A DNA stretch of 64,000 nt from a virus (taxonomy: Duplodnaviria; Caudoviricetes). Below are positions 15,892-48,635 of this stretch, piece by piece. Numbering within the stretch: the stretch's first letter is position 1; every line of letters starts with the position of its first letter. The notes under the pieces were generated by a model. The model searched no databases and was not told the origin of the DNA. It was given only the letters and a program-made list of their open reading frames with translations. Both the position numbers and the translations under genes were made by a program. The DNA lies in IMG/VR virus record IMGVR_UViG_3300028048_003161; one strand, 5' to 3'.

Positions 15892-16521
15892 TTGAACAGA
15901 AAAGTGTTTAACATTAACAACTTAAAGAATTGCATACTTATACAAAGATGGGATGGAGATATAGGCATTATTGACCTTGAGTATACCATTGGTACAACTG
16001 AAGTGATAGACTATGATTTCTATAACATACCTGATGGAAGTAATATAGAGTTCATTGTTGGAGCAGGCAGGACATATGAGAAAATGAGTGAGGACAGAGC
16101 AATGGTATTTAATAAACATAAGCTCAAAGAGGATGATCAATCAATATTTCCGTTATACAATAAGGAATATGACTATGTTGACATTCATAAAAACAATGAT
16201 CTTATCTTTTGGGATGGCAAGAACTTAACAGATGTAATGTTAGACGTATGTAATAAAAAGATATCTTATATGTGTACTAAGGTATGCAGTTTACTGCTAG
16301 AGAATAACAGTGGTTATAGGACAGTTGATAGGTTTGATACACTTCTGTCTAGGAGAGATACAGTAGAGTTAATAGATAAGACAGGATTCATTACAGATCT
16401 GACTAGTGAGTATGATATAGCAAACATGCTTAAAGGAGAAGAAATCATGTATTTTAAGCATGGTCCTTTCAACATTGTGTATCAACCTCGAAAAATAAGT
16501 GTAAGGAACATTCCATTTTAA
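15892..16521 (+). CDS. hypothetical protein, MLG-motif family
   Basis: TTG start after GGGGAG; FNINNLKNCILIQRWDG matches the next gene; ITDLTSEYDIANMLKG. Confidence 0.75.
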   Translation: MNRKVFNINNLKNCILIQRWDGDIGIIDLEYTIGTTEVIDYDFYNIPDGSNIEFIVGAGRTYEKMSEDRAMVFNKHKLKEDDQSIFPLYNKEYDYVDIHKNNDLIFWDGKNLTDVMLDVCNKKISYMCTKVCSLLLENNSGYRTVDRFDTLLSRRDTVELIDKTGFITDLTSEYDIANMLKGEEIMYFKHGPFNIVYQPRKISVRNIPF

Positions 16522-16542
16522 GAATGAAAGGTAGATGGTACA

Positions 16543-17211
16543 GTGAGAAAAGAGAAGTTTGACATTGACAATTTAAGAGATTGTATAGTAATACATAGAT
16601 ATGATGGGAGCATTGACATTATTGATATAAGACAGGCAAGAGAGAAAGATAGAGTTATTGAGTCTGAATACTATGTCATACCTGAAGAAAGCAATATTGG
16701 GTTTATTACAGGCATCAATAGAAAATATGTTACAGATAATAGAGAAGCATTAGGGCTTGCACTTGTTTATAATAACAGTAAGTTTAAGAGATCTAGCATG
16801 AATGTTATTGGTTATACAAGATGCTCATTACATTATAGGGACAATAGTGCATATGATAAGTTTATTATATACAATGGGGATAGCTTAAGAGATGCAGTCA
16901 AGGTTAAAATAGACAACACAGATCTTGAGTTTGAGGTAGTTGGTGATTTTGCTATTTGTAAAATGGCTATTTTACCAAGTATAGCTATTGTACCAAGTAT
17001 TGATATAAGATATACATATGTTAATAATTTTAGTACACTAGTTTCTAAAGATGATACAATTGAATTGATAGATTCAGCAGGTAATACTAGAGATTTAACA
17101 TATGAATGTGATGTACATGCAATGACAAGCGAAGAAGATAAGTACAGAATTATGCTTAATGAACTTGCTATATACATTGAGAATGAGAATCTATGCATTT
17201 CGAGACTATAG
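16543..17211 (+). CDS. hypothetical protein, paralog of 15892
   Basis: FDIDNLRDCIVIHRYDG; FSTLVSKDDTIELID. Confidence 0.8.
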   Translation: MRKEKFDIDNLRDCIVIHRYDGSIDIIDIRQAREKDRVIESEYYVIPEESNIGFITGINRKYVTDNREALGLALVYNNSKFKRSSMNVIGYTRCSLHYRDNSAYDKFIIYNGDSLRDAVKVKIDNTDLEFEVVGDFAICKMAILPSIAIVPSIDIRYTYVNNFSTLVSKDDTIELIDSAGNTRDLTYECDVHAMTSEEDKYRIMLNELAIYIENENLCISRL

Positions 17212-17225
17212 TATGATACATTGAT

Positions 17226-17504
17226 ATGAGGAGAAAGTTCCTAGAGAAACTAGACAAAGATAGTTTAATTGAGAGGCTTATGATAGCTGAAGAGTTACTC
17301 AACGAGGAAAAAGCAGATGCACGAGAATGGACAGGTTCAGACGGTATGCTAGGAAAAATTAGCAGTATTGTTTATAACGAAAACAGCGTTAATTATGATA
17401 AGGAACTTGCTGAAAAGTGGACAGACTTAATAAACAAAATTGAAGTCATGTCATTTGGAGCAACTTACAGAATAAATGAGAGGATACAACACTATGATAA
17501 ATAG
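17226..17504 (+). CDS. hypothetical protein
   Basis: 92 aa ORF in the gene run. Confidence 0.65.
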   Translation: MRRKFLEKLDKDSLIERLMIAEELLNEEKADAREWTGSDGMLGKISSIVYNENSVNYDKELAEKWTDLINKIEVMSFGATYRINERIQHYDK

Positions 17505-18432
17505 AGAGATACAGAGTTTCTGTGTACAGGGCACTAGAAAATCACATGCAGACTTGAATGGTAATACACATGATATGAGAGTATTAGAATTTGAGACTAG
17601 TCGTGGTTTAAATAATAAAATGCAATACAAAAGTTTAACTACAACTGGTAGAATAGATTTTGTACAGGATGGTTTATGGGATCAGCGTTACAATGTTATA
17701 ATAAGAGACAATGACTATGATGACATTAAGCATCCACATTTTGATTCTTTGAAATTAAACCAGATTACATTAACATGCCCTAATGATACAGATATAAAAT
17801 TGAATGTACTTTGGAATGACGGAACTAAGGAGGTTATAGACATAGTAGGTGACCTTTTTACACATGTAATGTTAGGATTTAATCATTATGCTACAAGAAT
17901 AGGCTGCTATGAAATTACACTAACACTTACAGATGATTCATTGATCATGTGGCTAACAGACATGTCTAGATTTGACTACGTTAAATGGGTAGAAGTTCAG
18001 CAGGTCAAGAAAGAGGACAACAGGGTTGTGTTTGACTTTGATGCATATGATAGTAAAGATAAGTTGTCATGTGATAAGTTTAAGGGCAGTAACTCAAAAC
18101 TAATGTGCAGTGGTCATATTGTGTTTAATACAGATCATAAAACACTGACAGCAGAGACAAGAGGTTATGATGCATATGGATTAAGAGAATATGACCTTAA
18201 TAAAATGAAAGATGAGAGGGTACTGTATATTGAATTGGATGATACCAGTGATACAGAAGTGAAGATCATGGGAGAGTTGGAGAATGGCAGTATCATAAAT
18301 ATGAATGTACGTGAGGTATTGGACATGTATGCAAGACATGTGATAAATGACAATGAAATAAATTGTGGAGCATTAAAAGTCATAGTAGATTGGGGTAAAA
18401 TTGTGATTAAACTTTCACATAACTTGTATTGA
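17476..18432 (+). CDS. hypothetical protein, MLG-motif family (two motif copies)
   Basis: EVIDIVGDLFTHVMLG and IINMNVREVLDMYA. Confidence 0.75.
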   Translation: MRGYNTMINREIQSFCVQGTRKSHADLNGNTHDMRVLEFETSRGLNNKMQYKSLTTTGRIDFVQDGLWDQRYNVIIRDNDYDDIKHPHFDSLKLNQITLTCPNDTDIKLNVLWNDGTKEVIDIVGDLFTHVMLGFNHYATRIGCYEITLTLTDDSLIMWLTDMSRFDYVKWVEVQQVKKEDNRVVFDFDAYDSKDKLSCDKFKGSNSKLMCSGHIVFNTDHKTLTAETRGYDAYGLREYDLNKMKDERVLYIELDDTSDTEVKIMGELENGSIINMNVREVLDMYARHVINDNEINCGALKVIVDWGKIVIKLSHNLY

Positions 18433-18493
18433 GGGGGAATGATGCATAGGACTAAACTTGACAGGCACACAATAAAGAAGATGAGGCAGTGAT

Positions 18494-18837
18494 ATGAATG
18501 AGCTAAGAGATTGTGTAGTAGTAGAGTTCACTAATGGTATCAAGTTTTACATTGGGTTTGACAGTAGTAATAAAAAATAGAACATTGGGGAATATGACTT
18601 ATGTGCATATTTAGGTGAAATTGGCATATATAATAAGTTAATGAAGCATCTAAAGGATGAAAATAGTGCATTGGGTAGTTTATGTGTTCCTGTGGAGAGA
18701 TACTTGACATATTGGAAGATATATGTATACAGGAAATGTTAGGATATGAACTTATGGATAAAGTAGAGTTCAGTTATGCAAGTGGAGCTGGCACACTTAG
18801 TTTAGCAGTGAAATGTGCAAATGAGAGTGTGCAATAA
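18494..18837 (+). pseudogene. degraded MLG-family gene
   Basis: MNELRDCVVVEF..., in-frame TAG at 18578, then a frameshift into GEILDILEDICIQEMLGY... Confidence 0.55.
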
Positions 18838-18940
18838 CAGTAAAAACTGCATTTAGATATAATAATTATAATTTAATTATTAAAATACAGATCAAAGACA
18901 AGCTAAGAAAAGCAATGAGCATATAAAAGGAGAAAAAGAC

Positions 18941-19465
18941 ATGGTAAATGGTTTATTTGTACGTATCAGATCAAAAGAGACAGAAGAAGTTTTATTAAAG
19001 TGTCCCCTGTCTGAAAAGGTTAGCTCAGATGATATAGAGGCAATCAAAACAGAGTGTGAGCAGTGCGGAATCAAGTTAGTGGACAGTATAGTTCCTGAAT
19101 CCTCAAGATTAGCTAGTAACTCTACATTTTGGACAGTCTTGTGGGATGATTACAATTATGTAGCATTAGAAGTTGGAATATATGACCAGTATTTGTATGA
19201 TGTTACAGTGGCTTGGGATGAAAGCAGGCATATGGCAGAGGTTGTTTGGACTGATGATAATGGAGAAGAGCAGGTATTTGATTTAGCATCACAGCGTGAA
19301 TTAAGTGCAATGCTTGGTCAGGAATCTTGGAATACAGACTTTGGATGTAAACTGACACCTGGTAAATTGGAGGACAAGCAGGTGTTTAACTTGGATACAA
19401 ATGAAGTAGAGAATATGGAATACAGTAGTGCAGTGATTACAGTGAGAGAATCAGAGGATAAATAA
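18941..19465 (+). CDS. hypothetical protein, MLG-motif family
   Basis: EQVFDLASQRELSAMLG. Confidence 0.8.
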   Translation: MVNGLFVRIRSKETEEVLLKCPLSEKVSSDDIEAIKTECEQCGIKLVDSIVPESSRLASNSTFWTVLWDDYNYVALEVGIYDQYLYDVTVAWDESRHMAEVVWTDDNGEEQVFDLASQRELSAMLGQESWNTDFGCKLTPGKLEDKQVFNLDTNEVENMEYSSAVITVRESEDK

Positions 19466-19494
19466 AAGAGCGTGCAGTTGGAGCATTGAAAAAA

Positions 19495-19544: not shown

Positions 19545-19574
19545 AGCACTTGGGTAATTGCAGGAGCATAGGGA

Positions 19575-21993: not shown

Positions 21994-22549
21994 ATGAGCA
22001 AAGGATTACAGGTAACGGACAATGGCAGAATAATGGGATGTACATTGGATGAATTTGAGAAAGTCATTAAAAAAAGAAAGAGTTACGAGCGATGGTTTAT
22101 TGCTGAACATCAATAATGAGTTTAGGGCATATATTCCTTTGAACTTGGGGCTTGTACATGGAAAGTTAAACATGTATACAACAGAGATTGGACATAAATC
22201 TAGTATGGGGTTTAATTATATTGAAGATGATGGGCATATAAAAGTAAATTTGGTCTATAGGACATGGCTAATTGGCATGTGTGAGTATAAGCAAGGAGTA
22301 AAAAATAAATGGGTATTACATAAGATAATTTTAATACCAGGTAGTATAATATCAGAGTTTGATGCTGATTACATAACAATTGATGAAAAGATCAGTTTAT
22401 CTGATGTGTTGGATGAGTCAAGGATGTTTGGGATATTAACATGGTACAATGTCAAAGAGATTAATGGCATGTGGTTAAGTTTGGATGGAGGTAATATGTT
22501 TTTAAGTGATCATATGTACAATCCTAAGGACTTAAAGGTTTATGGATAG
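21994..22549 (+). CDS. hypothetical protein, MLG family (frameshift in A7 at 22069-22075)
   Basis: MSKGLQVTDNG... joins the 22049 ORF if one A is removed; SRMFGILTWYNVKEINGMWLS. Confidence 0.6.
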
Positions 22550-22596: not shown

Positions 22597-23190
22597 ATGG
22601 GAAGTGATTTAGATAGCATAGTCTTAAGAGGGGATCAAGCAGCTAAGACAGTTATAAAAGACCTTGATACAATTAAAGAATGAAATAAACATGTTGAAAT
22701 TGAAAGCAAACATAAGGGTTGCTTGATATTCACACTGAAGGATTGTAAGATACTTTTCTCATTATGTGTTTATTACAGTGATAATACACCAGAGACACAT
22801 TTATACGTGTATAAGCATAATGGAAAAGCAAAGGTGTCCACAGAAACAGGAAAGATGCTTGGGAGAATAATAGACACAGCAGTAATGTTTAATGATGAGA
22901 CAGCTATACACTTGAGATTTGAGCTTAAGGATGACAATTGGTCAGCTACAGATATTGAGTGAGATGCTGGGGTATTGAGTGGTACTACAGAACTTACACA
23001 TGTACATGGGGATGTGCATAAAAACTTATTAGAAAACATTGATATGATCAATATGCTTGGGATATCAAGTTGGAACAACATAGAGGAAATAGATAACTTG
23101 TGGTTGAGTATAAGTGCAGGTAAATTTGTTTATTTAACAAGTAAGCAAGCAGTACCTATCAATTATAAGGAATATACAGTGACAGATTGA
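22597..23190 (+). pseudogene. MLG-family gene with two in-frame TGA codons
   Basis: One frame from 22597 to 23190 with TGA at 22681 and 22960; NMLGISSWNNIEEIDNLWLS. Confidence 0.65.
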
Positions 23191-23214: not shown

Positions 23215-23898
23215 ATGACATTGGATAGTATAACATATGAATTGATAAAGCAGAGATTAAGAAAAGCAATGAGTAAATCAACATCTATGAAAGATAATAA
23301 ATGCATGGGTAATGGTAAAGATACAGCAGTCTATCAGCTCTGCAAAATTGATAACCTGGTTGATTTGAATAAATAAATAGAAATTGAGAAGCAACATGAC
23401 GGTTGTTTATTGATGCAATGGGAAGAACACACAATGATGCTTTCATTTTGGATACCTGACTGTAATGATAGGAAAGACATCATTACAATTTATATGGTGG
23501 ACAATGTACAAATCTGGGACCTGGAAGATCCAGTCATAGAAGTTCAAAAGACAAACTGGGATTCAATTAGTGTTGGTATATATTATTATGGATATGACAT
23601 TGTACTTGTAGACTTTATATGGGATACAGATAAAAAGAAATGGACAGTGGCAAATTGTGATTGTGGCATGGTAGAGGTATCTAGACATACAGAAGTTACA
23701 TATATAACAAAGAATGGACAGTGGAAATTATCAGAAAACATTGATTTAGCTAATATGCTTGGTATTAAGGTTTGGCATAATATGAATAAGATAGATAATA
23801 TGTTTGTTAGCATAGTAAATAAAGGAATATCATTAAGTATTCAGAAGAAAGCACCTGATGAATTGAGAGTATTTGAAACAGACGGAGAAAAGCAGTAA
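23215..23898 (+). pseudogene. MLG-family gene with in-frame TAA at 23374
   Basis: NK*IEIEKQHDGCLL aligns with NKHVEIESKHKGCLI of the previous gene; NMLGIKVWHNMNKIDNMFVS. Confidence 0.6.
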
Positions 23899-23918: not shown

Positions 23919-25024
23919 ATGAAAGTTTCAGACTTTGGAATTTATGGAATTGACAATGGAGATGCATACTTATTATTTAAGAGAATAGGATCAAACAATC
24001 TTGACTGGTCGTGGTTTAATTTAGATGATACAGTTAAAAATGAAGTGAATGGAGCACAGGTTTATGGTAAACAGCTTAGACTACAGGAGGATGCTATTGT
24101 AGATACCTTATATGGTAGTAGGTGTGGTAAGCTGGATCGTAACTTTACACTTGGCATAACTGAATATAGTGAATGTCAGTTCAATAAAAAAACACATACA
24201 GCAAATGAAATTGGTGCATATAATATAACAATTAGGAGCATTGATGGAAATATAGACTCTGTTAAAATGAAATACAATATACAAACATATGAGTCATATC
24301 TAGTAAAGGGAGATACAGTAATAGATATTAACAAGTGTGCAGGAGTTAGACAACTTGCAGGGTTTTGTGGAGAGTTAGGGCTCGAGAGTTTAATACAGAA
24401 CATACAAATTATATTGGATACAGCTGAAAGAAAAGATGGTTACATTGGAATTTCAATATATAAAGCAGTATTTGATTGGGATAGCAGTACATATTTACAA
24501 ATGGTAGCACACAGTATGGGAAAACAAACAGTGTTTGACCTGGGATACACAAATGAGGGCATAAGTAGTAATAAATATGACTTGTATTCTTTGAGGCACA
24601 TGAATGTAGATTTGGATAGACCTGGAGTTAAGAGCTTTTCTTACATTAGATGTAGTAGCTTAACTACTAAAGAAGAGGATAGTATTATGGAATATGACAT
24701 GTGGTTACCTGATAGATTGTATGTGATGGCATTGTTAGACGGAGAAAAACGCTTAAGTAAAATGAATGTATTGGTAAAGATACTCGTACAGATAAAATTG
24801 AATTTATACTTAGGAAAACAGAGGATGGCAACACAGTAGATAAATCAGTGTTACTTATTGATAATGAAGGATGCGTTAAAGATGGTAAGAATAAGTTTTC
24901 AAAAGAAGTACTTGGGCATTGGGTATTAGAATATAGTCCTAGTGTAAAGGGAAGATGGGCAATAGGTATAAATCATTTGAGCAATACTGGAAAGATGCCT
25001 TCATTTGCATTTCTTGGTATATAA
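23919..25024 (+). CDS. hypothetical protein, MLG long subgroup (frameshift near 24760)
   Basis: VIDINKCAGVRQLAGFCGELGLESLI; the -1 frame continues IEFILRKTEDGNTVDK...LGHW, matching paralog C-termini. Confidence 0.65.
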
Positions 25025-27316: not shown

Positions 27317-28386
27317 ATGGACATAAATAAAAAATTGTACAACTTTGATAAAAGTAAACTAATCAATGAAGATTTGTATCTAATCATTGAAAAAGAGGAT
27401 AAAGACACTGGAGAATCAAGATGGGCATGGATAGATATAGATAAACCATGTAATGATGAAAGAAGTAAAATTGTGGTTTATGGGGATGCATGGGAGGATA
27501 GTGGAATTACATGTAATGCATATACAATATGGCAACAGCTTTATATAGGAGAATTTGAGGACTATTTTGATACTCTTATAACAGTAGATAAAGAGACAGG
27601 GTTCTGTATTAGTATAAGGATTGTACATAATGAAAATAAAGTTGATCAGGTAGGTATAAAAATCAGCACTAAAAAGTCAGATGGCTTAGCAATTTATTTA
27701 TATCATTTGGGAAAGATAATAAACATGACAGAAGAAACTAAGATATGCTATCTTAGTGGGGGGAGTTTAGCAATGAAATTGGGTTTGGAGACTTAATAAA
27801 TAATGTAAGAGTTAGCTTTGCAATAAGTGGTAAGGTGACAGAGTTTAGAATCAACAGGGTAATAAATAACTGGGACTATAGACACAAGACATGGTTCAGT
27901 GTAGAGGCAAGTAATGATACAGCATTTGAGATAGATGCAAAAGCAGCAATAGATGTTAAAACTAGCATAGGAAATAAAAAGAAACTTGACATTGTAGATT
28001 ATATTGGTAGACCTAATTATTCATATTATAGGAGCACTTTTAGAGATCCTAGCATTTACAAAGAACCAACAGAACTTCGTCTAAAGTTGGGTAAGAAAGT
28101 GTTTTTGAAAATGGTGCACGATGAATATGGAGGTATAATCAGTATGGTGGTTAAAGCACATCACCTTAAACCTGGAGACTTCAAAATGAAAATAACTTGC
28201 ATTGATGAGACAGAAACTACAAAGGAAAATGAGGGCGGAAAGAGAGAGATATATGAAATAGACAATGTAAATAAGAAAGATACAGAAGTGGCAGAGGTTG
28301 GCAATTGGTTAATTAGCTATGACATTCAAAAAGAAGTAGTCAACATACATGTTTTTAATAAAGACTACACTTGCATGACAGTGTGA
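27317..28386 (+). CDS. hypothetical protein, MLG long subgroup (frameshift in G6 at 27758-27763)
   Basis: One extra G restores CYLSGGEFSNEIGFGDLINNV, matching paralogs, and joins the 27835 ORF (VGNW). Confidence 0.7.
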
Positions 28387-32322: not shown

Positions 32323-33662
32323 ATGTCTGATGTAATTGAGCAGTTATATGGAGATAGGGTACCTGGTACAAATATAGTGTTTACACCTGAAAATGTTGTA
32401 GAGGAAATGATGAGTAGACTTCCTGAAGATTTCTGGACACCTGACAAAAGAATATTGGACATATGCAGCAAGTCAGGTAGATTTCTGAAATATGCATTTA
32501 ACAAATTATATAAATCACCTTATTTAAGTGAAATGACACCTAATGAGAGAAAGAGGCATATAATTGAAAATCAGTTGTTTGGACTGTCAAATGACTTTAC
32601 ATGTCTAGTTTTGGCAGAAACAACACTATATGGTTTTGCACAGTATGGAAAAAGAAACATTAAGCTTGTATCAAATTTAGAGGCAGTAGTAAAAAGAGTA
32701 GATAGACAGAGTGAACTTGGAAAGGAGACAGGTTTTGATATGCATTTCGACTTAGTAATTGGAAATCCCCCTTATAATAAGGGCATGGATATTGATTTCA
32801 TAGATCTTGGCTATGAATTAAGTAAACAGTATACAGTGATGATAGTGCCTGCAAAGTGGCAAACAGCAGATGCAAATCAGAGGATCAGTAGTAAAATGAG
32901 TTATGGACAGTTCAGAGAGAAGCTAGTCCCTCATATGAAATATGTATGTTTTTACCCTGACTGCTTAGACGTTTTTGGTATTCAAGAGCAGTCTGGGGTT
33001 AGCTGGTTTATTTTAGATAAGAGCAATACATATGAGGATAGTTGCACAGTAGAAAATAAGTGTAACTTACAGAAATATGCTAATGGCATTGAGAAAAGAG
33101 ATATAACTCACAGACAAACCTTATGGAACATAGGAAATAAAATAATTGAGCACTTAAATAGGGGGGGCAGTACAAATCATATGAGTTTAGTCCTATAGAA
33201 AATAGAAAAGCATACACACTTAACATGAATACACAAATGGCACTTGGTACATGTTCATCTGGTGCATGGGATTTCGACATGGGTGGAATAAAGAAAAGCT
33301 TTATAGGCAAAGGTGGAGTATTGTTTAATCAGAGTGGACAATTGAATCTAACAAATAAAGCACGCTTATTAAGAGGGGTTGAAAAGTCAGGCATAAGTGC
33401 ATCAAAAGATGTCTTTACTTCTGATGACATAGACGAGTGTAAATCTTTTTATACATGGATAAATAGCAAATTTACAAGGTTTTTTATACTGATCAACATT
33501 AGTTCATTAACAATTTTAAATGACAACACATTCAGGTTTGTCCCTTGTCCTCCTCATAATTCCTTTGATCACCTGTATACAGATAAGGAGCTGTATGATT
33601 GGTTTAACCTACCAGAGGAATATAGGGAAGTCATAGATAGTATCCTACGAGACCGTAAATAA
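32323..33662 (+). CDS. Eco57I-like N6-adenine DNA methyltransferase, frameshifted in a G7 tract (33161-33167)
   Basis: VFTP (motif X), ILDICSKSGRF (motif I), VIGNPPY (motif IV); G8 would join the TRD ORF ending FRFVP...YTDKELY. Confidence 0.85.
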
Positions 33663-36331: not shown

Positions 36332-37192
36332 ATGTTAGTAACATGTATAAATAGAGAGCGCAACAGTAGTGGACAAATATTATACTATGATATAATGGAT
36401 GAAAGCAATAATAAAATTAGGTTAACATCTGAACAACTGAAGAGTGCAATTAGGAATAAAAAGTTCATCTGTACAAATTTAACATTAACAAAGAATAATA
36501 GGCTAATGCTTACTAAAACAAAAGCAATTGCATATGAAAATAGTGAAAATAGACACCTAGCAAATAATTTGTCACAGTTGGATTTAAGCAAGCTAACACT
36601 AGATGAAATAAAAGCACACATGGAAAGAGTAATGCAGGCATATATAAAAGTAATGTTTAGGTCAAATAATCAGTTAACTTGTTGTGTAGGGCATTTACCT
36701 TTAATAATGGATAGGCTTGAGGATGGTGGTGTAGGGTTTGACATACCCTTACCTCTAAAAGATATAGACAATAAATACTTGAAGGGCTTTGACAGAGATG
36801 GGGAGTTCATCTATATGGAAATAAGTCCTGCACAGCCTAATTTGCTATATAACATATGTGACTTATATAGGCATTATTCACTCAAGACTACAGTGATACC
36901 TAATTATGATACAGTATTTGACTTACTAGGTAAAGCACTAGGAAAAGCTTGGGGCAGTAGTTTCGTAATAGATGAGCTGTGGTCACAAGATGCTGGACAA
37001 TATTGTTTAGTTTATAACATAGATGCTAAAAATGCAGTAGCATCACTAAAAAGTACCTTGCATGGATATGAGTGCATTATTGAGAAAGATAGTCATAGTA
37101 AAAGTGTAAGGATAGACACACTTACAAAAAATATATCACAGCAGAAAAATGTGTATACATTATTATATTGTTTAGCACAGCAGATAAAGTGA
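36332..37192 (+). CDS. hypothetical protein: N-terminal NLxLT tag domain plus CCxGHL domain
   Basis: TCINRERNSSGQILYY...LKSAI...CTNLTLTKNNRLM; CCVGHLP; LHGYE. Confidence 0.85.
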   Translation: MLVTCINRERNSSGQILYYDIMDESNNKIRLTSEQLKSAIRNKKFICTNLTLTKNNRLMLTKTKAIAYENSENRHLANNLSQLDLSKLTLDEIKAHMERVMQAYIKVMFRSNNQLTCCVGHLPLIMDRLEDGGVGFDIPLPLKDIDNKYLKGFDRDGEFIYMEISPAQPNLLYNICDLYRHYSLKTTVIPNYDTVFDLLGKALGKAWGSSFVIDELWSQDAGQYCLVYNIDAKNAVASLKSTLHGYECIIEKDSHSKSVRIDTLTKNISQQKNVYTLLYCLAQQIK

Positions 37193-37930
37193 ATGCAGTG
37201 GAGGATAAGTAGGAGATGCATAGGAGTAAAAAGGGAGACACAGTGGTACTTAAGAACAGTTGCATAGGAGTAAAAAGAAAGTTGCATCACTAAACAAGTG
37301 GTTTAATCATATACAATAAAGCAGATGCATAGGAGTAAAATGGTGGATTCCTAGCAAATACTAAATAGGTGCACTGGTATAAAAGGGTTGATGTACCACT
37401 ATTGAAGGATAGTTGCATAGCAATAAAGTGGGTGATGCATAGCAAATAAAAAGCTGATACATAGTTGAATGATAAGTTTAACTCCTCTATTAAAACAGAT
37501 GCACTAGTGGAAAAAGCTGATGCATCACAGAGTAAAAATTGAGACATAGGTGAAAAAGAGCAGATGCATCACTTTGTTAGTTGTTTAGCTTTACTATTAA
37601 GGGTTGATGCAATACAGAGTAAAAATGCTAGCATAGGAGGATATGGGTTGATGCATAGCAAAACCAAAATAGATGCATTACTAAAATAAAGCTAATGCAT
37701 CGCTAACAGATGGTTTAGCATAGGAGGATATGGGATAATAAACATATGTACATTGGAAGATAGGTGCTAATACATAGCTAACTTAAAATTGATGCATAGC
37801 AACTTTAAAATTGATGCATAGCAACTTTAAAATTGATGCATAGCAACTTTAAAATTGATGCATAGCAACTTTAAAATTGATGCATAGCAACTTTAAAATT
37901 GATGCATAGCAAGCTTAAAACTTGTGCATT
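37191..37930 (+). repeat. degenerate ~22-bp phased array of GATGCATAG-like motifs
   Basis: Motif recurs about every 21-23 bp across ~740 bp of non-coding DNA. Confidence 0.75.
37783..37912 (+). repeat. perfect 22-bp tandem repeat TTAAAATTGATGCATAGCAACT, ~6 copies
   Basis: GATGCATAGC at 37791, 37813, 37835, 37857, 37879 and 37901. Confidence 0.95.
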
Positions 37931-38023
37931 ACAATAAAATTGGTTTAACTCTTATAACTTAAGGTTAAGCATAGAAACAAAAACTTATAAACATAGCAAA
38001 TTGGGAAAGGCAAGGTACAAACT

Positions 38024-38944
38024 ATGAGATTAACATGTACAAATAAGTTTAGAAACATGAATGGTAAAATCATGTACTATGAAGTTAAGGATGAGCATAA
38101 CAGTTATTACACAGTGACACCTCAAGATTTAAAGAATAAATTGAGACAGCCTGGAGTTACATGTACAAATTTGAAACTTACATCAAATGGTAGGTTAATA
38201 AGCAGTGGTTCAAGTAATATGTTTAGCAAGTTGAATCTTGAGGAGCATGTATCTGGAGATGCTCTTGCAATAGCATTAACTAAGGCTTTGAGGCAGAATA
38301 TAAAAATTCCTTCTAATGGATACGTTGATCACTGTTGTTTTGGTCATTTGTTAATGATAGCTGACTGGGATGATCCTGTTGACAGATATGATGAATATGG
38401 GGATATGTACACCGTAACAATAGATATGCCATTACCTACAAATGAGATAGACCCTAATTTGTTAAGGAATTACACAATTAAAAATGGAATGGTACAGTCA
38501 ATGTACAATAATAACAATAAGGAAATGTTAGCTGACTTGTGTGCAATTTATAATACATATGCACTAAAGAGTACAGACATTATAGGGTATAGTACAATGA
38601 GTGTATTATTAGAAAAGGCACTAGTAAAGTCAGTAGAGGGTTTAAAGTATAAGAGTAATGGCAGAATGTGGGAAATGGAAGCATATGGAGGAGGACCTTG
38701 TGGTGCAGCAGCTCTGGGAGGTTGGACCTGTGATACTTGGGAGGCAGGCGATCTGTTAATAAAGCTGATGAGTCATGTTTGGGGATATGAGATAGTAGTA
38801 GAGGATGAAGATCATCCTGGAAGGTTTAGACAGACAATGCAGATAAAAAGAGGTACATTGGATAAGAAAAAAGTGACAATTGAAATGTATAACTTCTTTA
38901 GAAGGACAATATCAAATTATGTAAGAATGACAAATAACGACTAA
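38024..38944 (+). CDS. hypothetical protein: NLxLT tag plus CCxGHL domain
   Basis: TCTNKFRNMNGKIMYY...CTNLKLTSNGRLI; CCFGHL; HVWGYE. Confidence 0.85.
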   Translation: MRLTCTNKFRNMNGKIMYYEVKDEHNSYYTVTPQDLKNKLRQPGVTCTNLKLTSNGRLISSGSSNMFSKLNLEEHVSGDALAIALTKALRQNIKIPSNGYVDHCCFGHLLMIADWDDPVDRYDEYGDMYTVTIDMPLPTNEIDPNLLRNYTIKNGMVQSMYNNNNKEMLADLCAIYNTYALKSTDIIGYSTMSVLLEKALVKSVEGLKYKSNGRMWEMEAYGGGPCGAAALGGWTCDTWEAGDLLIKLMSHVWGYEIVVEDEDHPGRFRQTMQIKRGTLDKKKVTIEMYNFFRRTISNYVRMTNND

Positions 38945-38965
38945 AGTAGTTGGAGGACAGCATAA

Positions 38966-39884
38966 ATGATGAAAACAACCTGCATTGAAAAACAAAGATA
39001 TAAAGGTGGAAAGATTGTCAAATACATCATTAAAGACCTTAAGTCAGGTCAATATTTTGAGTTTACACCTGCTGAATTAAAGAGTGTCATTAGTTCAGGA
39101 AATATGGAATGTGATAACCTAATGTTGACAAAAGACAATAGACTTATGGATAAGAAAAAAACCACATCAATGTAAAGCAGAAGATGCAATGTGGGATACA
39201 TTTAATAAAATAGGCATTACTGATATGAGCATTGCAAAATTAAGAAAGTACTTACAGAGTAGACTTGGACTTCCTATGAAGCCTTTGAAAACGAAGGTGA
39301 GTGGTGAATATTGTTGTGTGGGTCATTTACCTATGTACATTGAGATTCTCAATGATCAATATGATGGAGTTTATTTTGAGTGTCCTTTACCTGTAGTTGA
39401 GATCAGTAACAAATATTTAGAAGGCTTCATATATAATGCTAAGTCATGTAATTTTATAGTTTATGGGGAGGACTTAGAACAAATAGACAAGGTTTTGGCA
39501 ATATACAAGCAGTATGCATTAGGTGATAAGGTAATTGCAGGCTTTGATGAAATAGTGAGTATTGCATCAAAGGCAGGAAAGTACATATCAAATCACTATG
39601 GGATTGGCATGAGTTGTAACATAGAAAATTGTGATGGACAGTTAGCATGTAAAGTAATGGTTGGTTTAGAGGAGGATTTTCCTGCATACTTAATCATTAA
39701 GAGTCATACATGGGGATATGAGATGAATGTACATTATAAACCACTCAATGGCAATGAAGAAATCAGAGAGACAGTTAAAATTAAGGGGAAAGATAACAGA
39801 GACATTAAGGAGGACCGAATGGACATTTATAGAAAGATGGTAAGAATGTTGGAAAGAGCAGTAGTAGAGCAGTGGACAGCATAA
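38966..39884 (+). CDS. hypothetical protein: NLxLT tag plus CCxGHL domain (frameshift in A7 at 39155-39161)
   Basis: CDNLMLTKDNRLM, then CCVGHLP and HTWGYE; removing one A gives the same architecture as the two paralogs. Confidence 0.75.
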
Positions 39885-42318: not shown

Positions 42319-42347
42319 TTGACAAATGATGGAAAATGTGCTATAAT
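42319..42347 (+). promoter_or_regulatory. consensus sigma-A promoter
   Basis: TTGACA-17-TATAAT with extended TG. Confidence 0.85.
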
Positions 42348-43142: not shown

Positions 43143-43806
43143 AGAGAAGTTAAACATGGCAAGATTGAGCATCACTAAAAAGAAAAATAAATTAGATAGT
43201 TGTACATTAACAATTATTGAGAATAGCAGAGTCAAAGTGGTGTTTGACTTCAATAAACCCCTTTGGAATGGTAGGTTTATTAGCAATCACAATATTGTAG
43301 GTTTACATACACTAATAAATGGTAGGAAAGGCATAAAATTTGTTACAGCAACCACTAGTTCAAGGTGTGTATTCACCAAAGATTGTGATCACTACTTACA
43401 ACTAACATATAACTTTGGTACAATACTCGTGGAGTTTAATAGTAGAGGCATTGTCTATGGACTTTGGATGTCTAATAAACCTTTTTGGTTTACAGAGAAA
43501 TACACATGGAAAATAAAAGATAAGCATGCAATTACAGAGAAGGACAATATAATTTTAGAGGTCAACGGTGATAAATATGACTTGTTTAATGATATGGACA
43601 ATACAATGGTAATGCAGGTGATTGGACGAGATGTAAATAATACATATAGATTGGTGAATGAAGAATGTGAAGTTTGTTTGGAAATTGATTCAGATAAACA
43701 AGACACAGAGGATAAAAAGGGTATACCTTATTTCTTTAGGGCGCAACTTGGCAGGGATTCAAGAGGAGCATTTACTAATGGGTGGCTTTTAAGTAAATGT
43801 AAATAG
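43123..43806 (+). CDS. hypothetical protein, MLG family cluster 2
   Basis: LTIIENS; NFGTILVEFN; DNIILEVNGDKYDLF...MQVIG. Confidence 0.8.
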   Translation: MKMSSIKEKLNMARLSITKKKNKLDSCTLTIIENSRVKVVFDFNKPLWNGRFISNHNIVGLHTLINGRKGIKFVTATTSSRCVFTKDCDHYLQLTYNFGTILVEFNSRGIVYGLWMSNKPFWFTEKYTWKIKDKHAITEKDNIILEVNGDKYDLFNDMDNTMVMQVIGRDVNNTYRLVNEECEVCLEIDSDKQDTEDKKGIPYFFRAQLGRDSRGAFTNGWLLSKCK

Positions 43807-43848
43807 ACATATAGAAAAGAATAAGGGGCATAGGAAGTAGAACATAGT

Positions 43849-44347
43849 ATGGAAATAACGAGACTTAAGGTAATTGAGAATGGACAATTAACATATAACC
43901 TGGACTTATCAGAAAAAAGTGTTTATACACAGAGGAATGGTTGGAATGGTTTGCAACATACCTGCAGTTGTGAATGGTAAGAAGCAAATATTAGAAATAA
44001 CAAGCATTAAGGTTTTTGATTTATTAAATTGTCAAATAAATTTGTCATTTGGTAATTTGTTCATAAGATTTAATAAAAATGGCATACTGACTAGTGTGTG
44101 TCTTGAGAATTATGTTCCTTATGGACATGTTCAAAAAGTGTATAGACTTGATAAAGATAACAATGTGCAAATAGAAACAGACGAAGGTACATATGACATT
44201 GATGAGACAATCAGTGTAAAGTTTATGTTGGACAATGTAGAGTATGATAAGTTCATACACCTGGATGCTAACTCAACATTAAAACTTTTTAAGGAGTCAA
44301 GTAAATGTGGATTTCCTGCACTAATGTGGGAAGTTGAAAACTGGTGA
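43849..44347 (+). CDS. hypothetical protein, MLG family (frameshift in A6 at 43913-43918)
   Basis: MEITRLKVIENGQLTYNLDL joins the 43919 ORF; TYDIDETISVKFML. Confidence 0.65.
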
Positions 44348-44410: not shown

Positions 44411-44935
44411 GTGGAAAAGATGTTTATATTTAATAGAAAGAAAGATTGGGACACTGCAAAGTATACATTGACAATGATATTAGATGGGCAAGAAGTTTTT
44501 ACAGTGGACCTTACTGAAAAGTTGAACAAGCATAAAATTAAGAATTGGATCCGATGTTCTAAAGAAGTAAAGGAACGAATTGAGTTTATCATGGATGGTG
44601 TGCAAGTATCACTTCTATTTGTTGGTATCATCATTACATTTAACTTGAATACCTTGGGTTATGTGACAGGGATAAGCATATGGGGAAGTTTTAATTTTGC
44701 AGACTTAGATGAGGCTAGTGATATAATTTTAAGACTTAACGATGAGGAGTTTAGTGCATATGACATAATAAACATGGCTAATATGTTGGGTATGAGAAAT
44801 GGATATAAAGCAGATGGCAGTTACTTCACAGTGAATACACATGATGAAATACTTCTTGACAGTTTGACAATTAACTTTGGCAGTACTATAAAGTGGTCTG
44901 ACATGATCAATCAGAAGATGCAGCATGAGGGATAG
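44411..44935 (+). CDS. hypothetical protein, MLG family
   Basis: LTMILDGQEVFTVDL; EFSAYDIINMANMLG. Confidence 0.8.
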   Translation: MEKMFIFNRKKDWDTAKYTLTMILDGQEVFTVDLTEKLNKHKIKNWIRCSKEVKERIEFIMDGVQVSLLFVGIIITFNLNTLGYVTGISIWGSFNFADLDEASDIILRLNDEEFSAYDIINMANMLGMRNGYKADGSYFTVNTHDEILLDSLTINFGSTIKWSDMINQKMQHEG

Positions 44936-45179
44936 GATCAGGGAGAATAAAAAGATTGACCTTAATGAAATAGTTAGTTTGGCTCAAATGTTGGGTGCTG
45001 GCTATGATAAGGAGTATGTTACAGAGTATAATAATGCAGTTGCACGATTGGCTATGACTAGACTTAACTATTCAAACAGAGATGCAATAAAGCTTGAGAT
45101 TGATATTGATTATACTAAGTTAGACAAAGAGGAAGAAGAGTGGTTTAATAAAGTAATAGGAGAAACATTGGGAGTTTAG
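44925..45179 (+). CDS. short MLG-family protein or fragment
   Basis: KIDLNEIVSLAQMLG near the N-terminus. Confidence 0.65.
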   Translation: MRDRIRENKKIDLNEIVSLAQMLGAGYDKEYVTEYNNAVARLAMTRLNYSNRDAIKLEIDIDYTKLDKEEEEWFNKVIGETLGV

Positions 45180-45184
45180 ACAAT

Positions 45185-45262
45185 AGACAGGAGGATAAAT
45201 AGTGGACAGGGGATAGTAAAATAGACATGAAGGATAATGAAACAGACAGGAGGATAAATAGT
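45185..45262 (+). repeat. ~20-bp tandem repeat of an RBS-containing unit
   Basis: AGACAGGAGGATAAATAGT exact at 45185 and 45244, with two degenerate copies between. Confidence 0.7.
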
Positions 45263-45822
45263 TGATATCATTAAAAGTGTTTAGCGATACGAAAGAAATG
45301 AATTTTGATATAGGTAAAAGGGTCAAAATGCAGACAAATGGTGGACTAGTAGAGACAGATACTGGACAGATAGAAATGAATTATAGACATATAACATGTT
45401 CTAAGCATATAAGTAAACTCCTTGGCTGTAAGTATATTCATGAGTTCCTTGGTTCTTCTGTATTGTCATTTAGAATAGATGAGACAGGCAGTATTAAAGC
45501 TATTTATTTTACATTTGGAGTTGATTCTTATGCATCACATAAAGTAGGACAAGCAATGGGAAATGGAGAGATACAGAGGAGTTCAGAGTTTATAATTATA
45601 ATAAATGATGAGGTCATTGACATAAATGAAGAATTGGCAGTGTTTAATATGTTAGGATATACTGAAGGAGTTTATGACATTGATAGTAAATATGTCACAG
45701 CAACATATGAGGTAAAGAAGAGTCCTTCCATAGGTAGTATGTATAAGACACTTGTTACAGTGGAGATAAAATGTGAGCAGGGTTTTGACAAGTTAGAAAA
45801 TTTGGAGGACAAACAGGTTTGA
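45262..45822 (+). CDS. hypothetical protein, MLG family
   Basis: INDEVIDINEELAVFNMLG. Confidence 0.8.
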   Translation: MISLKVFSDTKEMNFDIGKRVKMQTNGGLVETDTGQIEMNYRHITCSKHISKLLGCKYIHEFLGSSVLSFRIDETGSIKAIYFTFGVDSYASHKVGQAMGNGEIQRSSEFIIIINDEVIDINEELAVFNMLGYTEGVYDIDSKYVTATYEVKKSPSIGSMYKTLVTVEIKCEQGFDKLENLEDKQV

Positions 45823-46209
45823 TGGTTTGGTGTAGTTGTGCTTTGTTGTTATGAAAACAGACACACTAAGGATAAGTTGAGATTTAATTTGTTATGACAG
45901 TGCTAATTTAATAGAGTTGGCATGACCAATAAAGTGTAATAGCATTATAGATAAAAATGAAAGTAATTAAATTAGAAGAAAACTAGGACAATTTGTAAGC
46001 AAGTATTAAAAAGAATTAGACAATGGACTAATATGATAAATACACTTGAAATTTAGAGTGGACAATGAATATCAATAGGGATAGCATTGCAATTAAATGC
46101 TATAGACAATAGTAGTTTAATTTGGTTTGGATAAATAGACAGAAAATAGTATCAAGCGATACACAAGATTTGAAAATAGATAAGCATTTAGGTTTGGAGG
46201 TATAGACAC

Positions 46210-46695
46210 TTGGAAATGAAAGGCAGTTGTAACTTAATGAAAGACAGTGTAGAAAAAGACATTGATAAAGATTTCATAGAACTTATAGAAAATGGTAAGG
46301 TACTCCTAAGGTTAAATTTGGAACAAGAAATAGGGTTAATTGCTACAGACAACCTTTATACTAGTTTTGAATATGATTTAACATTTGATAAAATTTGTGG
46401 TAAAATAGTAAAGAAACCTAGTAAGCTCAGGTTTGGAGATACCAGCATAAGATATGAAATCAATGGACACGGGTTTAATGTGTACGCAACAATGAGACAG
46501 ATTAAGACCATTGAAGTTAAAGACATACTTGGGTTAGATATGAGATTACATATAAATGGTAATGATGCATTGGTGTCAGACCTTATGGAAGTAAGTAGTT
46601 TAGTTTCAGGAGATTTAGATACATTGTTTGAAAATAAGTGGAGACTTTCAGAGATTGATTCAACAGTGATATTAAGTAGAGAAAAGCAGTGTTAA
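46210..46695 (+). CDS. hypothetical protein, MLG family
   Basis: IELIENGKVLLRLNL; INGNDALVSDLMEVSSLVSG. Confidence 0.75.
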   Translation: MEMKGSCNLMKDSVEKDIDKDFIELIENGKVLLRLNLEQEIGLIATDNLYTSFEYDLTFDKICGKIVKKPSKLRFGDTSIRYEINGHGFNVYATMRQIKTIEVKDILGLDMRLHINGNDALVSDLMEVSSLVSGDLDTLFENKWRLSEIDSTVILSREKQC

Positions 46696-46717
46696 GTTGA
46701 AAGGAGATTGAGACAAA

Positions 46718-47233
46718 ATGACCGATAGCATTGAAAGAAAAGAGAAAGACACAGAGAGAAAAATGGGTTACCTTGCTGCTAAATATAAGGGCAAAGAGGT
46801 ATTTAGAATGTACATGTATGGAGATAAGAATAGACTTGTGAAAAATGAGGATAACACAGACCTTAAGGAAGAAGGCTTTGAGATTAAGACAAAGAAGGCA
46901 GTGGATGGAGAAGTATGTTCAGAGGTAATTGAGGTTAAGCAGGACGAAGTTTGTATGCTTGCAGTGACTAATGTGTATGTGCAGGGTAAGGTTTCATATA
47001 GACTTTTAGTGACCTTGAAAGACAGTTTAATCGTTGACATTGAATATGTAGACAGTAATGGAAATATCAATGACTTTAAGAGCATGAAAGATGTGCAGGC
47101 AATGTTGGGTAGCAGTACAGAGAATGGTTTGTACAGAGACAGTAATGTTATAGTTGAGGACTATAGTGGTAATGCTGGGCAGTTTGGATATAGGTATATG
47201 TTTGAAATAAATGGCATTGGTAATGTGTTATAA
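46718..47233 (+). CDS. hypothetical protein, MLG family
   Basis: KYKGKEVFRM; INDFKSMKDVQAMLG. Confidence 0.8.
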   Translation: MTDSIERKEKDTERKMGYLAAKYKGKEVFRMYMYGDKNRLVKNEDNTDLKEEGFEIKTKKAVDGEVCSEVIEVKQDEVCMLAVTNVYVQGKVSYRLLVTLKDSLIVDIEYVDSNGNINDFKSMKDVQAMLGSSTENGLYRDSNVIVEDYSGNAGQFGYRYMFEINGIGNVL

Positions 47234-47250
47234 CAGGGGTCTAAAAACCA

Positions 47251-48150
47251 GATGCAGTGGGCGATTAAAGGGGGATGCAGTGGACAGTTTGAGGGTGAAC
47301 CATAGGAGATAGTAGGGTTGATGCATAGCGATTAAAAAGAGTGATGCATAGGGATTAAAAAGGTTGATGCACTGGAAATAATGAGGGTTGATACATAGTA
47401 AAATTAGTGTGTTGATGCATAGGTAAAATAAAAATTGAGTCATGGGTGTTAAATTTGATAATGCACTGGTGGAAATTTAGATGCTTGGGTAGGAAAATTT
47501 AATATACATAGTAAATTTAGGAAAAATGATACCATTGGTGCTAAAAGGGATGCAGTGGTCTAAAAGGGTGTTGCATGGGTATAAGAGAATGATATCATTG
47601 AAAAGGTATTGTGATACCAGTGGTATAAAAAAGATGATACCTTGGTATTGTGTTTAGTACCATAGTTTGAAAAAGTGAGGTACCATTGGTATAAAACTTG
47701 ATGCTCTGGTAGAAAAGGATAATACCAGTGGTCTAAAGGAATATACCATTGGTATAAGGTTGTTTGTATCATTGGTATAAGGTTGTTTGTATCATTGGTA
47801 TAAGGTTGTTTGTATCATTGGTCTAAGAGGATAATACCAGTGGTCTAAAAAGTGGATGCTTAGGTCTAAAATGGTTTGTAACATTGAGAGGATAGGAGTG
47901 TAGCACTGGTTAAAATGGAGATACTAGGGCATAAGAGAGTGATGCTTTAGTATAAAATGGTAATACCATTGGAAAGATGTGGTGATACCAGTGGTGGATA
48001 AGGGTGATACCAGTGGTATAAAGTGATAATACCATTGGTGAAAAAAGGTAGATACTTTGGTATTAAATAAATGTACCATTGTTGTAAAAGGTAGATGCTT
48101 GGTTAAACAGTAAGGTGAGGCACTGCCTTTGTGAGAGATGCCATTGGTCT
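47251..48150 (+). repeat. degenerate 21-23 bp phased array (GATGCAGTGG / GATACCA[G/T]TGG)
   Basis: Motif starts at 47251, 47274, 47297, 47320, 47343, 47366, 47390, 47414, 47437 and onward to ~48137. Confidence 0.8.
47747..47822 (+). repeat. perfect 23-bp tandem repeat CATTGGTATAAGGTTGTTTGTAT, three copies plus a partial
   Basis: Unit starts at 47747, 47770, 47793 and 47816 (partial). Confidence 0.95.
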
Positions 48151-48194
48151 AAAAGAGTTATAACAGGTTGGTTTATTGAGAGGACTATTGTAAA

Positions 48195-48635
48195 ATGGAT
48201 AATAGACTTACAATTAAAAAGAATGACAATAAAATTATAGAAATAGACCTTAATGATAAGTTTGTGGTACAACAGGCAATTGGAAAGAGATATGAAATTA
48301 AGTATCAGTTCCCTGTTTGTTATAGAGATAAACTTTTGGAGATAGAGAATAATGCAAGTGGTACTGGGTTATACTATGGAAAGTTAACTGTATACGTGAA
48401 TAAAAAGTCTTTTGACGATAGTATTGGAGATATAGCCATATATAATTGTACCAAGGACTTTGATTTAGAGGTTGTGTGGAAAAATGAAGTGATAAATGTA
48501 CAGGAGTTATTGGATATTAGGACTATGGTTGGAATGGATAATAGCATTACTATTGATAGGCAGGGTTTTAGAATGTATTGTATGAGGCAGGGTTTGTTTA
48601 GAATTAGTCTATATAATAGTAATATGTTACAATAA
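48195..48635 (+). CDS. hypothetical protein, MLG family
   Basis: LTIKKNDNKIIEIDL; KNEVINVQELLDIRTMVG. Confidence 0.8.
   Translation: MDNRLTIKKNDNKIIEIDLNDKFVVQQAIGKRYEIKYQFPVCYRDKLLEIENNASGTGLYYGKLTVYVNKKSFDDSIGDIAIYNCTKDFDLEVVWKNEVINVQELLDIRTMVGMDNSITIDRQGFRMYCMRQGLFRISLYNSNMLQ

Follow-up and report, generated by a model that had tools for sequence, protein, structure and literature searches.

The 64,000-nucleotide stretch of DNA analysed here (IMG/VR virus record IMGVR_UViG_3300028048_003161; hereafter the window) carries two clusters of open reading frames (ORFs) whose products probably form one protein family around a common core motif, a strand-turn-strand followed by [D/N]-h-x-E-x(5)-h-x-x-M-L-G (h, hydrophobic), referred to below as the MLG box. 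The conservation pattern of the MLG box points to a buried, capped amphipathic helix, which would be the folding core of a shared domain. This protein family is new and undescribed; it fills ∼20 kb of the window, where it is the largest gene expansion seen. Taken as a whole, our best explanation of these genes, a family specific to this lineage whose members keep one fold but bind host or competitor proteins through variable surfaces, stands at about even chances.

A shared motif in two tandem gene clusters

The candidate motif was located in 25 ORFs or fragments, all on the + strand, with 16 loci at 15.9-29.4 kb (cluster 1) and nine at 42.5-48.6 kb (cluster 2), in agreement with the set of about 25 members in two clusters described in the initial annotation (Table 1; ORFs are designated by a start coordinate). 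BLAST alone recovers six tandem subfamilies, namely A (15892/16543), B (19575/23919/25005/26110/27317+27835), C (22049/22723+22975/23410), D (28437/28914), E (43123/43919) and F (44411/45262), and hidden Markov models (HMMs) together with hhalign support their union into one superfamily of tandem subfamilies, as had been proposed. The tripeptide MLG occurs ten times in the 5,201 residues of the members, against 0.85 expected from shuffles, and three times in 12,075 non-member residues, two of these occurrences being inside the clusters. A strict pattern, [ILVFY][DN][ILVFM]x8M[LVT]G, matches seven members, nothing in the same non-member residues and 0.02 in shuffles; a loose motif pattern matches 13 members and two non-members. 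Counting from the Met at position 0, the spacing between the D/N at -10 and the Gly at +2 is identical in 17 of the 25 members, A and B included, and the motif helix of subfamily C is two residues shorter.

Profile comparisons extend these links. An HMM seeded with ten MLG proteins finds 48195 (E 5e-4), 19575 (E 2e-3) and 22049 (E 2.5e-3), the best of 553 six-frame decoys lying at E ∼1.3. When the models were rebuilt with one subfamily left out at a time, the held-out protein was significant for 45262 (4e-5), 44925 (1.6e-4), 48195 (2.9e-5) and 20778 (3.4e-6), and it ranked first for 23410, 18682, 18941, 46718 and 42498. All-against-all hhalign was applied to 16 subfamily profiles, enriched beforehand with orthologues from large protein databases; eight unrelated paralogue families encoded in the window served as controls. 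The top 22 pairs are all member-member, and 16 member pairs exceed the control maximum of 20.9 (Mann-Whitney p = 4e-7, the pairs not being independent of one another), among them F2-44925 (42.7), F1-F2 (33.5), A-46718 (33.2, probability 49%, motif on motif), F1-B (29.3, motif on motif), F2-E1 (28.8) and E1-E2 (27.4). The top alignment places motif on motif in 32 of 120 pairs, a count inflated by the anchors of weak members having been picked by eye.

Several of our results weigh against a single family and would fit a narrower view, in which about 13 true MLG proteins stand beside unrelated orphans (A, B, E2, 42498 and 46210), a hairpin with a capped helix being common in the Asn/Asp/Gly-rich proteins of low-GC proteomes. 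Leave-one-subfamily-out HMMs were unsuccessful for A, B, D, E, 46210 and, unexpectedly, 17476. The four subfamilies among these are tied to the family via hhalign or BLAST only, and 46210, 42498 and 43123 are barely linked to it; over the comparison as a whole, most hhalign probabilities stay under 50%. The motif profile also picks up SRCR repeats (see below), so the pattern can arise independently. Moreover, the N-terminal strand L.h.ENG...h.hDL, which the initial annotation had ascribed to many members and which the eye can make out in cluster 2 and family D, did not hold up, with leave-one-out E values of 0.018 to 46 and one decoy scoring equally. We nevertheless regard the narrower view as unlikely: the seed HMM reaches 19575 of family B, the F1-B and A-46718 scores exceed every control, the spacing conserved in the 17 proteins embraces A and B, the structural models of families B and F agree in element order and have fold-search matches in common, and all candidates fall within the two clusters, with none elsewhere in the 64 kb.

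Membership is accordingly graded. The comparisons support about 18 loci, i.e. 13 MLG-type proteins together with family B; A1, A2, 28914 and 43919 are probable members; and 43123 (through 43919 only), 42498 and 46210 are weakly supported candidates. The hairpin and h[D/N]h.[E/D]......ML[G] motif announced for the whole set is thus borne out by its statistics and by the HMM or hhalign links of most subfamilies but is weak in 42498, 46210 and 43123, and the motif profile, real across most members, is not significant for every subfamily. The synonymous sites of the codons for the motif Leu, Gly and Asp vary freely, which indicates selection on the protein and not on the DNA; for the same reason, a DNA-level origin of the motif, as an embedded site or by gene conversion, was ruled out.

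The MLG box as a probable folding core

In the 17 proteins of equal spacing, position -10 is D/N in 94%, positions -9 and -3 are hydrophobic in 100% and 94%, respectively, position -7 is Glu in 47%, and position 0 is Met, Leu or Ala in 100% (Met in 12 of 17); Leu marks +1, and Gly occupies +2 in 82%. Entropy is low at -10, -9, -7, -3, 0, +1 and +2 only, and the solvent-side helix columns (-8, -6, -4, -2 and -1) reach ∼3 bits, the level of the unconserved flanks. In helix capping generally, D/N-x-x-E acts as a capping box and helices commonly finish at a Gly C-cap; the hydrophobic positions of the motif make up a single face of an amphipathic helix. Since the conserved columns are the caps and the hydrophobic positions, and the exposed ones vary, we read the MLG box as a probably buried amphipathic helix at the core of the domain.

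Structure prediction is in line with this reading. AlphaFold2 (AF2) models of 45262 (20-sequence alignment; strands 109-114 and 117-120, helix 121-131) and of 26110 (16-sequence alignment; strands 134-140 and 145-148, helix 149-158) both contain the beta-hairpin followed by a helix that had been noticed in the sequence, and the motif hairpin and helix are the best-predicted part of the 26110 model (predicted local distance difference test, pLDDT, 71-83). Both models order their elements as bb-bbb-bb-alpha-bbb, and they come from subfamilies, B and F, without significant pairwise similarity. Ten PDB entries (6jau, 6xtd, 4ygt, 9j9w, 8wj5, 1xkp, 3c5p, 5bnd, 7dfs and 4ifa) are common to the top-50 lists that the two models give against 48,161 chains, which suggests that these two subfamilies fold alike, as a sheet with one helix packed across it. 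Foldseek gave no match at E ≤ 0.001 against PDB and BFVD, and the best VIA-align scores over the 48,161 chains (Z 3.9 for 45262; Z 5.5 for 26110, to YfeY) lie under the tool's own background, so no fold was assigned. Through their element order and shared PDB entries, the two models, both of low confidence, hint at a common fold. In the C-terminal half of family B (residues ∼203-350 of 26110), weak beta-sandwich rows (Ig/fn3/C2-like) were obtained (Z 3.4-4.7; pLDDT <50), and this half may be a second, separate domain.

Several points count against burial and a common fold. Both AF2 models are poor (mean pLDDT ∼50, predicted template-modelling score 0.52) and cover two subfamilies only. The shared PDB matches all have Z <6 and may be generic attractors for sheet-plus-helix models. 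Orthologues of 45262 keep even the polar helix positions invariant, leaving room for a functional surface, and Met, found at position 0 in 12 of 17 members, is more specific than is usual at a structural hydrophobic site.

The last two points would also suit the reading given in the initial annotation, a library of adaptors in which an exposed MLG docking helix brings one partner (a protease, RNA polymerase or clamp) to many scaffold-bound targets, like F-box or PRANC proteins. The short motif has indeed persisted where the rest has diverged past recognition, Met-Leu-Gly is unusually specific, and among the 13 orthologues of the 45262 group no window is better conserved than the motif block with its polar positions (rank 1 of 169). 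That group is alone in this respect, since in the B1, E1 and 17476 orthologue groups the motif is no more conserved than the rest, and across paralogues the exposed helix columns vary like the flanks around an N-cap, a capping-box Glu, a hydrophobic stripe and a C-cap Gly. A motif that belongs to a buried structural core, as this pattern suggests, is what the initial annotation itself had named as speaking against its reading. F-box, PRANC and SOCS boxes, which likewise are short helix-containing motifs on otherwise dissimilar proteins, are separable terminal modules whose exposed residues touch Skp1 or elongin, whereas the MLG motif is embedded mid-domain between strands in the AF2 models; no F-box-like or other adaptor domain was found by a Pfam scan of the 25 members. 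The accompanying notion of a hypervariable scaffold was overstated, as the orthologues of each paralogue are on average 72-93% identical over their whole length. A docking helix therefore appears quite unlikely, and helix capping together with core packing could account for a strikingly conserved short motif without any shared binding partner.

Distribution and similarity to known families

When 1.84 billion representative proteins were searched with a motif-region profile, 13 matched at E ≤ 1e-3: 11 orthologues of window members, carried by related elements, and two repeat proteins of eukaryotes. Because the library matches are, besides these two, orthologues from related elements only, the family is, as far as such searches tell, confined to this element lineage. 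Pfam gave no family for the 25 members at E ≤ 0.01 (ten members at E ≤ 1 show sub-threshold noise only), PHROGs and NCBIfam gave no match, and PADLOC-DB gave no family for the 25 members and hence no defence-system component. No relative was found among PDB sequence profiles with three alignments, and the ESM Atlas returned no usable match to 45262 and 26110. Fast-turning multigene families that lie in tandem in accessory regions of giant mobile elements are, as a phenomenon, already familiar from large viruses and plasmids.

One of the two eukaryotic matches, the 1,603-amino-acid (aa) protein P0021, consists of SRCR repeats (...ALVVCRMLGYSDG..., i.e. ...VVCRMLGY...), its summed E of 1e-7 arising from many weak repeats. 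The SRCR core (...G.VEV..NG.WGTVCDD.W....A.VVCRxLG...) likewise has a beta-hairpin and then a helix ending in hydrophobic-Leu-Gly, which the SRCR sheet cradles. SRCR is, however, an extracellular, disulfide-rich animal domain, whereas the MLG proteins have neither conserved Cys columns nor a visible signal peptide; the spacing of the two motifs differs by 3-4 residues, the fold-search lists contain no SRCR chain, and Pfam gives no SRCR match. On these grounds, membership in SRCR was ruled out, and the likeness would be a convergence on the same supersecondary unit.

Turnover, broken copies and selection

A search of JGI/ENA metagenome contigs gave two loci, of which the sole informative one is a close relative from a human gut assembly (ENA ORTT01000003, here L001). 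It keeps 43123, 44411, 45262, 46210, 46718 and 48195 of cluster 2 at 75-92% amino-acid identity (75% for 43123, 91% for 46210) and is missing 42498, 43919 and 44925. Cluster 1 is missing as a whole: the slot matching window 15.9-29.4 kb (L001:1293-4959) is occupied by two ORFs, a methylase/restriction-like one of 926 aa and a transposase-like one of 185 aa, and on this comparison the interval flanked by the half-methylase and the Ig-like protein is an exchangeable island. Within cattle, the bovine strain X3 has no counterpart of 15969-17476, the stretch with the A pair. Fused and truncated forms also occur, as the 369-aa relative P0023 joins two 44411-like modules in a tandem fusion, and 44925 (84 aa) is the 5' stump of a 182-aa protein (P0025). 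Together with the pseudogenes described next, these differences agree well with the birth-and-death turnover that had been proposed.

The suggestion that several members are decaying proved equally apt: breaks or truncations affect at least seven copies, in three cases at homopolymer runs. Besides the 44925 stump, the 51-aa fragment 18682 and the in-frame stop between 22723 and 22975, the window copy of 43919 (E1) is frameshifted at an A6 run near 43913, its relatives P0030 and P0033-P0035 encoding 165 aa. An extra A in the A7 run at 22069 shortens the N-terminus of 22049 relative to X3, X8 and P0019 (184 aa). At 23215..23898, a single 227-aa gene in the relatives P0015 and P0026 is interrupted in the window by a TAA at 23377-23379, the stop of ORF 23215..23376, where the relatives have Gln. 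The orthologues of 23919 (P0044-P0049) are 368-384 aa long, and the window copy is frameshifted at ∼24.8 kb. Finally, 27317 and 27835 represent a single family-B gene split in two, with 94 nt in X3 and X8 against 96 giving one frame there; both at 22069 and around 27758, the lengths in X3 and X8 differ so as to restore the frame.

Only two runs of ≥6 G exist in the 64 kb, and both fall exactly at frame breaks, the family-B break at 27758 and 33161. The run at 33161 breaks a methylase (32308|33225), and several A6/A7 runs (22069, 39155, 39947 and 43913) lie at split genes or in gaps beside them. Such homopolymer breaks may reflect decay, phase variation or homopolymer error. The contigs of two probable underlying runs contain every sampled word of 19.5-29.4 kb, which argues against an assembly error at 22069 and 27758; 43913 is outside this stretch.

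Between the window and L001, the ratio of nonsynonymous to synonymous substitution rates (dN/dS) is 0.13-0.70 for members and 0.02-0.22 for neighbouring genes. The members are thus constrained genes that evolve faster than their surroundings, under a purifying selection weaker than that on their neighbours. The arms race of the initial annotation is what we would infer from the turnover and the moderately raised dN/dS. In window 44411-45822, aligned to L001:9220-10555, the dS of 44411 and 45262 is 0.06-0.09 against 0.17-0.51 for neighbours, with a dN/dS of ∼0.7; the low dS suggests a recent exchange of this 1.4-kb segment between bovine and human-gut elements.

As for expression, two RNA libraries from one rumen sample yielded contigs identical to 15922-18527 and to shorter pieces of cluster 1, with an uneven cover unlike that of DNA runs. 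They give a weak hint of transcription in that one sample, and the parts of cluster 1 without such contigs (e.g. 20.2-21.1 kb and 27.6-28.1 kb) are no sign of silence. These contigs cover the gene 17476, which has an orthologue (P0016) and in which another hairpin-helix, of degenerate sequence, can be discerned by eye near residue 285.

The element and its gene content

The window codes on one strand, has a low GC content (∼33%) with a marked GC skew, and encodes proteins that mostly have no family match. Its DNA is present in bovine gut metagenomes from ten studies, and orthologues of its genes sit on contigs of 464,735, 505,756 and 549,993 bp. No relative was found in IMG/VR, nor by tblastn in PLSDB and INPHARED, nor in 185,579 GTDB species genomes queried with the F-family alignment and with the neighbouring gene 52011. 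The element that carries the family would be a giant (>460 kb), extrachromosomal, plasmid-like element of cattle and human gut Firmicutes. Giant elements of this kind are almost wholly uncharacterised, and literature on giant gut extrachromosomal elements and on the double-wing domain held nothing bearing on the MLG-helix family.

Lineage-specific expansions make up most of the window. Two more families of orphan paralogues, without Pfam or PHROG match, were noted in it, one of ∼450-aa proteins at 6.4-14.5 kb (6370-14538) and one with a CC.GHL/GYE signature at 36.3-39.9 kb (36332-39884). Promoter and terminator scans gave the same counts as shuffles, except for one perfect promoter at 42319. 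In cluster 1, a 92-aa, apparently helical ORF (17226-17504) contains an MLG outside any hairpin context. This ORF overlaps 17476 at its annotated start, is missing along with the A pair from strain X3 and is not a member by profile.

Table 1. Members, fragments and associated signals of the two MLG-box gene clusters (window coordinates).
Feature	Coordinates	Strand	Remarks
Subfamily A copy 1	15892..16521	+	TTG start at 15892; motif ...ITDLTSEYDIANMLK; BLAST to 16543 E 3e-24
Subfamily A copy 2	16543..17211	+	Degenerate motif ...TRDLTYECDVHAMTS; BLAST to copy 1
Singleton 17476, 318 aa	17476..18432	+	Likely start 17494; MLG motif at residue 132; seed HMM E 1.5e-20
Fragment 18682, 51 aa	18682..18837	+	Motif alone (EILDILEDICIQEMLG); leave-one-out rank 1, E 0.054
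Singleton 18941, 174 aa	18941..19465	+	Motif VFDLASQRELSAMLG; hhalign to 17476 motif on motif
Subfamily B, 383 aa	19575..20726	+	Two predicted domains; motif EIYISEQVGLASALG; BLAST to 26110 and 25005; seed HMM E 2e-3
Singleton 20778, 399 aa	20778..21977	+	C-terminal motif DYDLNELVGIADMTG; leave-one-out E 3.4e-6 at predicted place
Subfamily C, 166 aa	22049..22549	+	Motif ISLSDVLDESRMFG; BLAST, seed HMM
Subfamily C pseudogene	22723..23190	+	ORFs 22723-22962 and 22975-23190 split by in-frame stop; BLAST to 23410 E 6e-10
Subfamily C, split gene	23215..23898	+	Motif KLSENIDLANMLG; 53 aa + 162 aa
Subfamily B, frameshifted	23919..25024	+	306 aa + 58 aa; break near 24.8 kb; BLAST
Subfamily B, 366 aa	25005..26105	+	BLAST
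Subfamily B, 384 aa	26110..27264	+	N-domain (∼residues 12-225) carries motif VIDINKEAEALYLSG; orthologues P0040-P0043
Subfamily B, split	27317..28386	+	Frameshift at G6 run 27758; frame 1 goes on with family block G.EIGFGDLINNVRV
Subfamily D, 152 aa	28437..28895	+	Motif DIIDAGLVQNMLG; seed HMM; orthologue P0024
Subfamily D, 152 aa	28914..29372	+	Degenerate motif (ESVDAAVTLG); BLAST to 28437 E 1e-10
Sigma-70-type promoter match ahead of cluster 2	42319..42347	+	TTGACA, 17 nt, TG-TATAAT; 12/12; consensus match only
Weakly linked 42498, 214 aa	42498..43142	+	Motif EIFNVSSLFDVMLI; leave-one-out rank 1, E 0.13; hhalign 22.2
Subfamily E2, 227 aa	43123..43806	+	Basic, pI 9.1; BLAST to 43919 E 7e-4; hhalign E1-E2 27.4
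Subfamily E1	43804..44347	+	N-terminal hairpin (MEITRLKVIENGQLTYNLDLSEK) lost to frameshift at A6 near 43913
Subfamily F2, 174 aa	44411..44935	+	Motif FSAYDIINMANMLG; seed HMM
5'-truncated remnant, 84 aa	44925..45179	+	Motif KIDLNEIVSLAQMLG; full-length relative P0025, 182 aa
Subfamily F1, 186 aa	45262..45822	+	Motif VIDINEELAVFNMLG
Weakly linked 46210, 161 aa	46210..46695	+	IKTIEVKDILG; no significant profile link
Singleton 46718, 171 aa	46718..47233	+	Motif INDFKSMKDVQAMLG; seed HMM, leave-one-out, hhalign
Singleton 48195, 146 aa	48195..48635	+	Motif VINVQELLDIRTMVG; last gene ahead of 3.4-kb gene-free tract

Function and comparison with known systems

Our preferred explanation may be put as follows. 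All the ORFs would belong to one lineage-specific multigene family with a common alpha+beta domain, an antiparallel sheet with a single helix, this fold being extended by us to every member. The helix would be N-capped by D/N and the capping-box Glu, end at the C-cap Gly, and pack on the sheet via the hydrophobic residues at -9, -5/-6, -3, 0 (Met) and +1 (Leu). Tandem duplication and then divergence outside the core would have led to ∼16 subfamilies, family B gaining a second beta domain and the P0023 type being fused in tandem. The proteins would be cytoplasmic and mostly acidic, encoded in strain-variable islands, one of which would lie in the slot of the relative's large methylase/restriction-like gene. 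They would act as stoichiometric binders, the variable surface of each paralogue neutralising a different host or competitor protein in the style of anti-defence or immunity proteins.

The last step is the most speculative one. The members have no signal peptides and no membrane segments, and their median isoelectric point (pI) is 4.95, against 6.09 for the other proteins of the window; with acidic residues at 12-21% only, the extreme acidity of a DNA mimic is not seen. It is because the proteins appear cytoplasmic and acidic, sit in strain-variable islands, one of them exchangeable with a restriction/modification-like gene, and probably combine one fold with diverging surfaces that we propose binders, with a separate host or competitor protein as the target of each. 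The proposal is tentative, and we would sooner bet against it than for it; Pfam scans of the flanking proteins revealed no known defence, toxin or anti-defence neighbour, which weighs on the same side.

A more specific version would make the clusters an acquired defence island of orphan immunity genes directed against the polymorphic toxins (Rhs, LXG or type VII secretion system type) of competing gut bacteria. Small, acidic, cytoplasmic and strain-variable genes in tandem on a mobile element would fit, immunity genes likewise forming variable tandem arrays on mobile DNA, and both models list RhsI1 (6xtd_B; Z 3.7 and 4.1) and the YdcD double-wing protein (8wj5_A; Z 3.4 and 4.7). These two, together with DUF4309 YjgB (4ygt_A) and YfeY (2qzb_B), are small alpha+beta proteins composed of a sheet and a helix that rank among the best fold-search matches to both models, but at Z 3.4-5.5 they stay under the level of a fold call, have no sequence similarity to the MLG proteins and, for RhsI1 and YdcD, score within the noise of the tool's calibration on low-confidence models. 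Furthermore, the flanking proteins have no toxin domain in Pfam scans, the neighbours being the half-methylase, an Ig-like secreted protein, a Cys-repeat protein and non-coding arrays, no immunity family is found by Pfam or NCBIfam, and immunity families usually spread widely whereas this one is apparently confined to its element lineage. We give this version a slim chance.

It is very unlikely that cluster 2, lying among phased DNA-repeat arrays beside a putative origin, encodes maintenance proteins that bind those arrays or the replication/partition machinery, for, despite its retention in L001 along with the adjacent non-coding tract, the position of 48195 next to the 3.4-kb gene-free tract and the strong promoter (a consensus match) ahead of it, the members are mostly acidic, have no DNA-binding domain by Pfam and are often broken, and cluster 1 is dispensable, being missing from L001.

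Returning to binders of host or competitor proteins, their boldest form would be a switchable arsenal, in which paralogues disable different host or competitor systems, are turned on and off by slippage at G6 27758, A7 22069 and A6 43913, and offer the MLG helix as a common handle to one element-encoded partner. This is a long shot; if true, it would be the bacterial-plasmid counterpart of the viral adaptor/effector multigene families, with contingency-locus control. If, more simply, the paralogues inhibit host defence or competitor toxins, they would constitute a new fold class of inhibitors and offer a first handle on how such an element establishes itself and persists in cattle and human gut bacteria.

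Two further groups of known systems are comparable. Anti-defence islands, as found in phage early and plasmid leading regions (Ocr/ArdA, Acr loci), likewise consist of small, acidic, cytoplasmic orphans in one-strand clusters with strong promoters, fast turnover and adjoining methylase genes; unlike them, the MLG proteins have no homology to a known anti-defence protein and probably share one fold in place of the usual mix of folds. The multigene families of giant viruses and other large elements (MGF360/505 of African swine fever virus, poxvirus ankyrin/PRANC, mimivirus families and jumbo-phage paralogues) are similarly tandem, highly diverged paralogues of one lineage, with strain-variable copy number, truncated and fused copies, a location in accessory regions and relaxed purifying selection. 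The MLG-helix family differs from them in being carried by a bacterial plasmid-like element and in being built on a domain that belongs to no described family.

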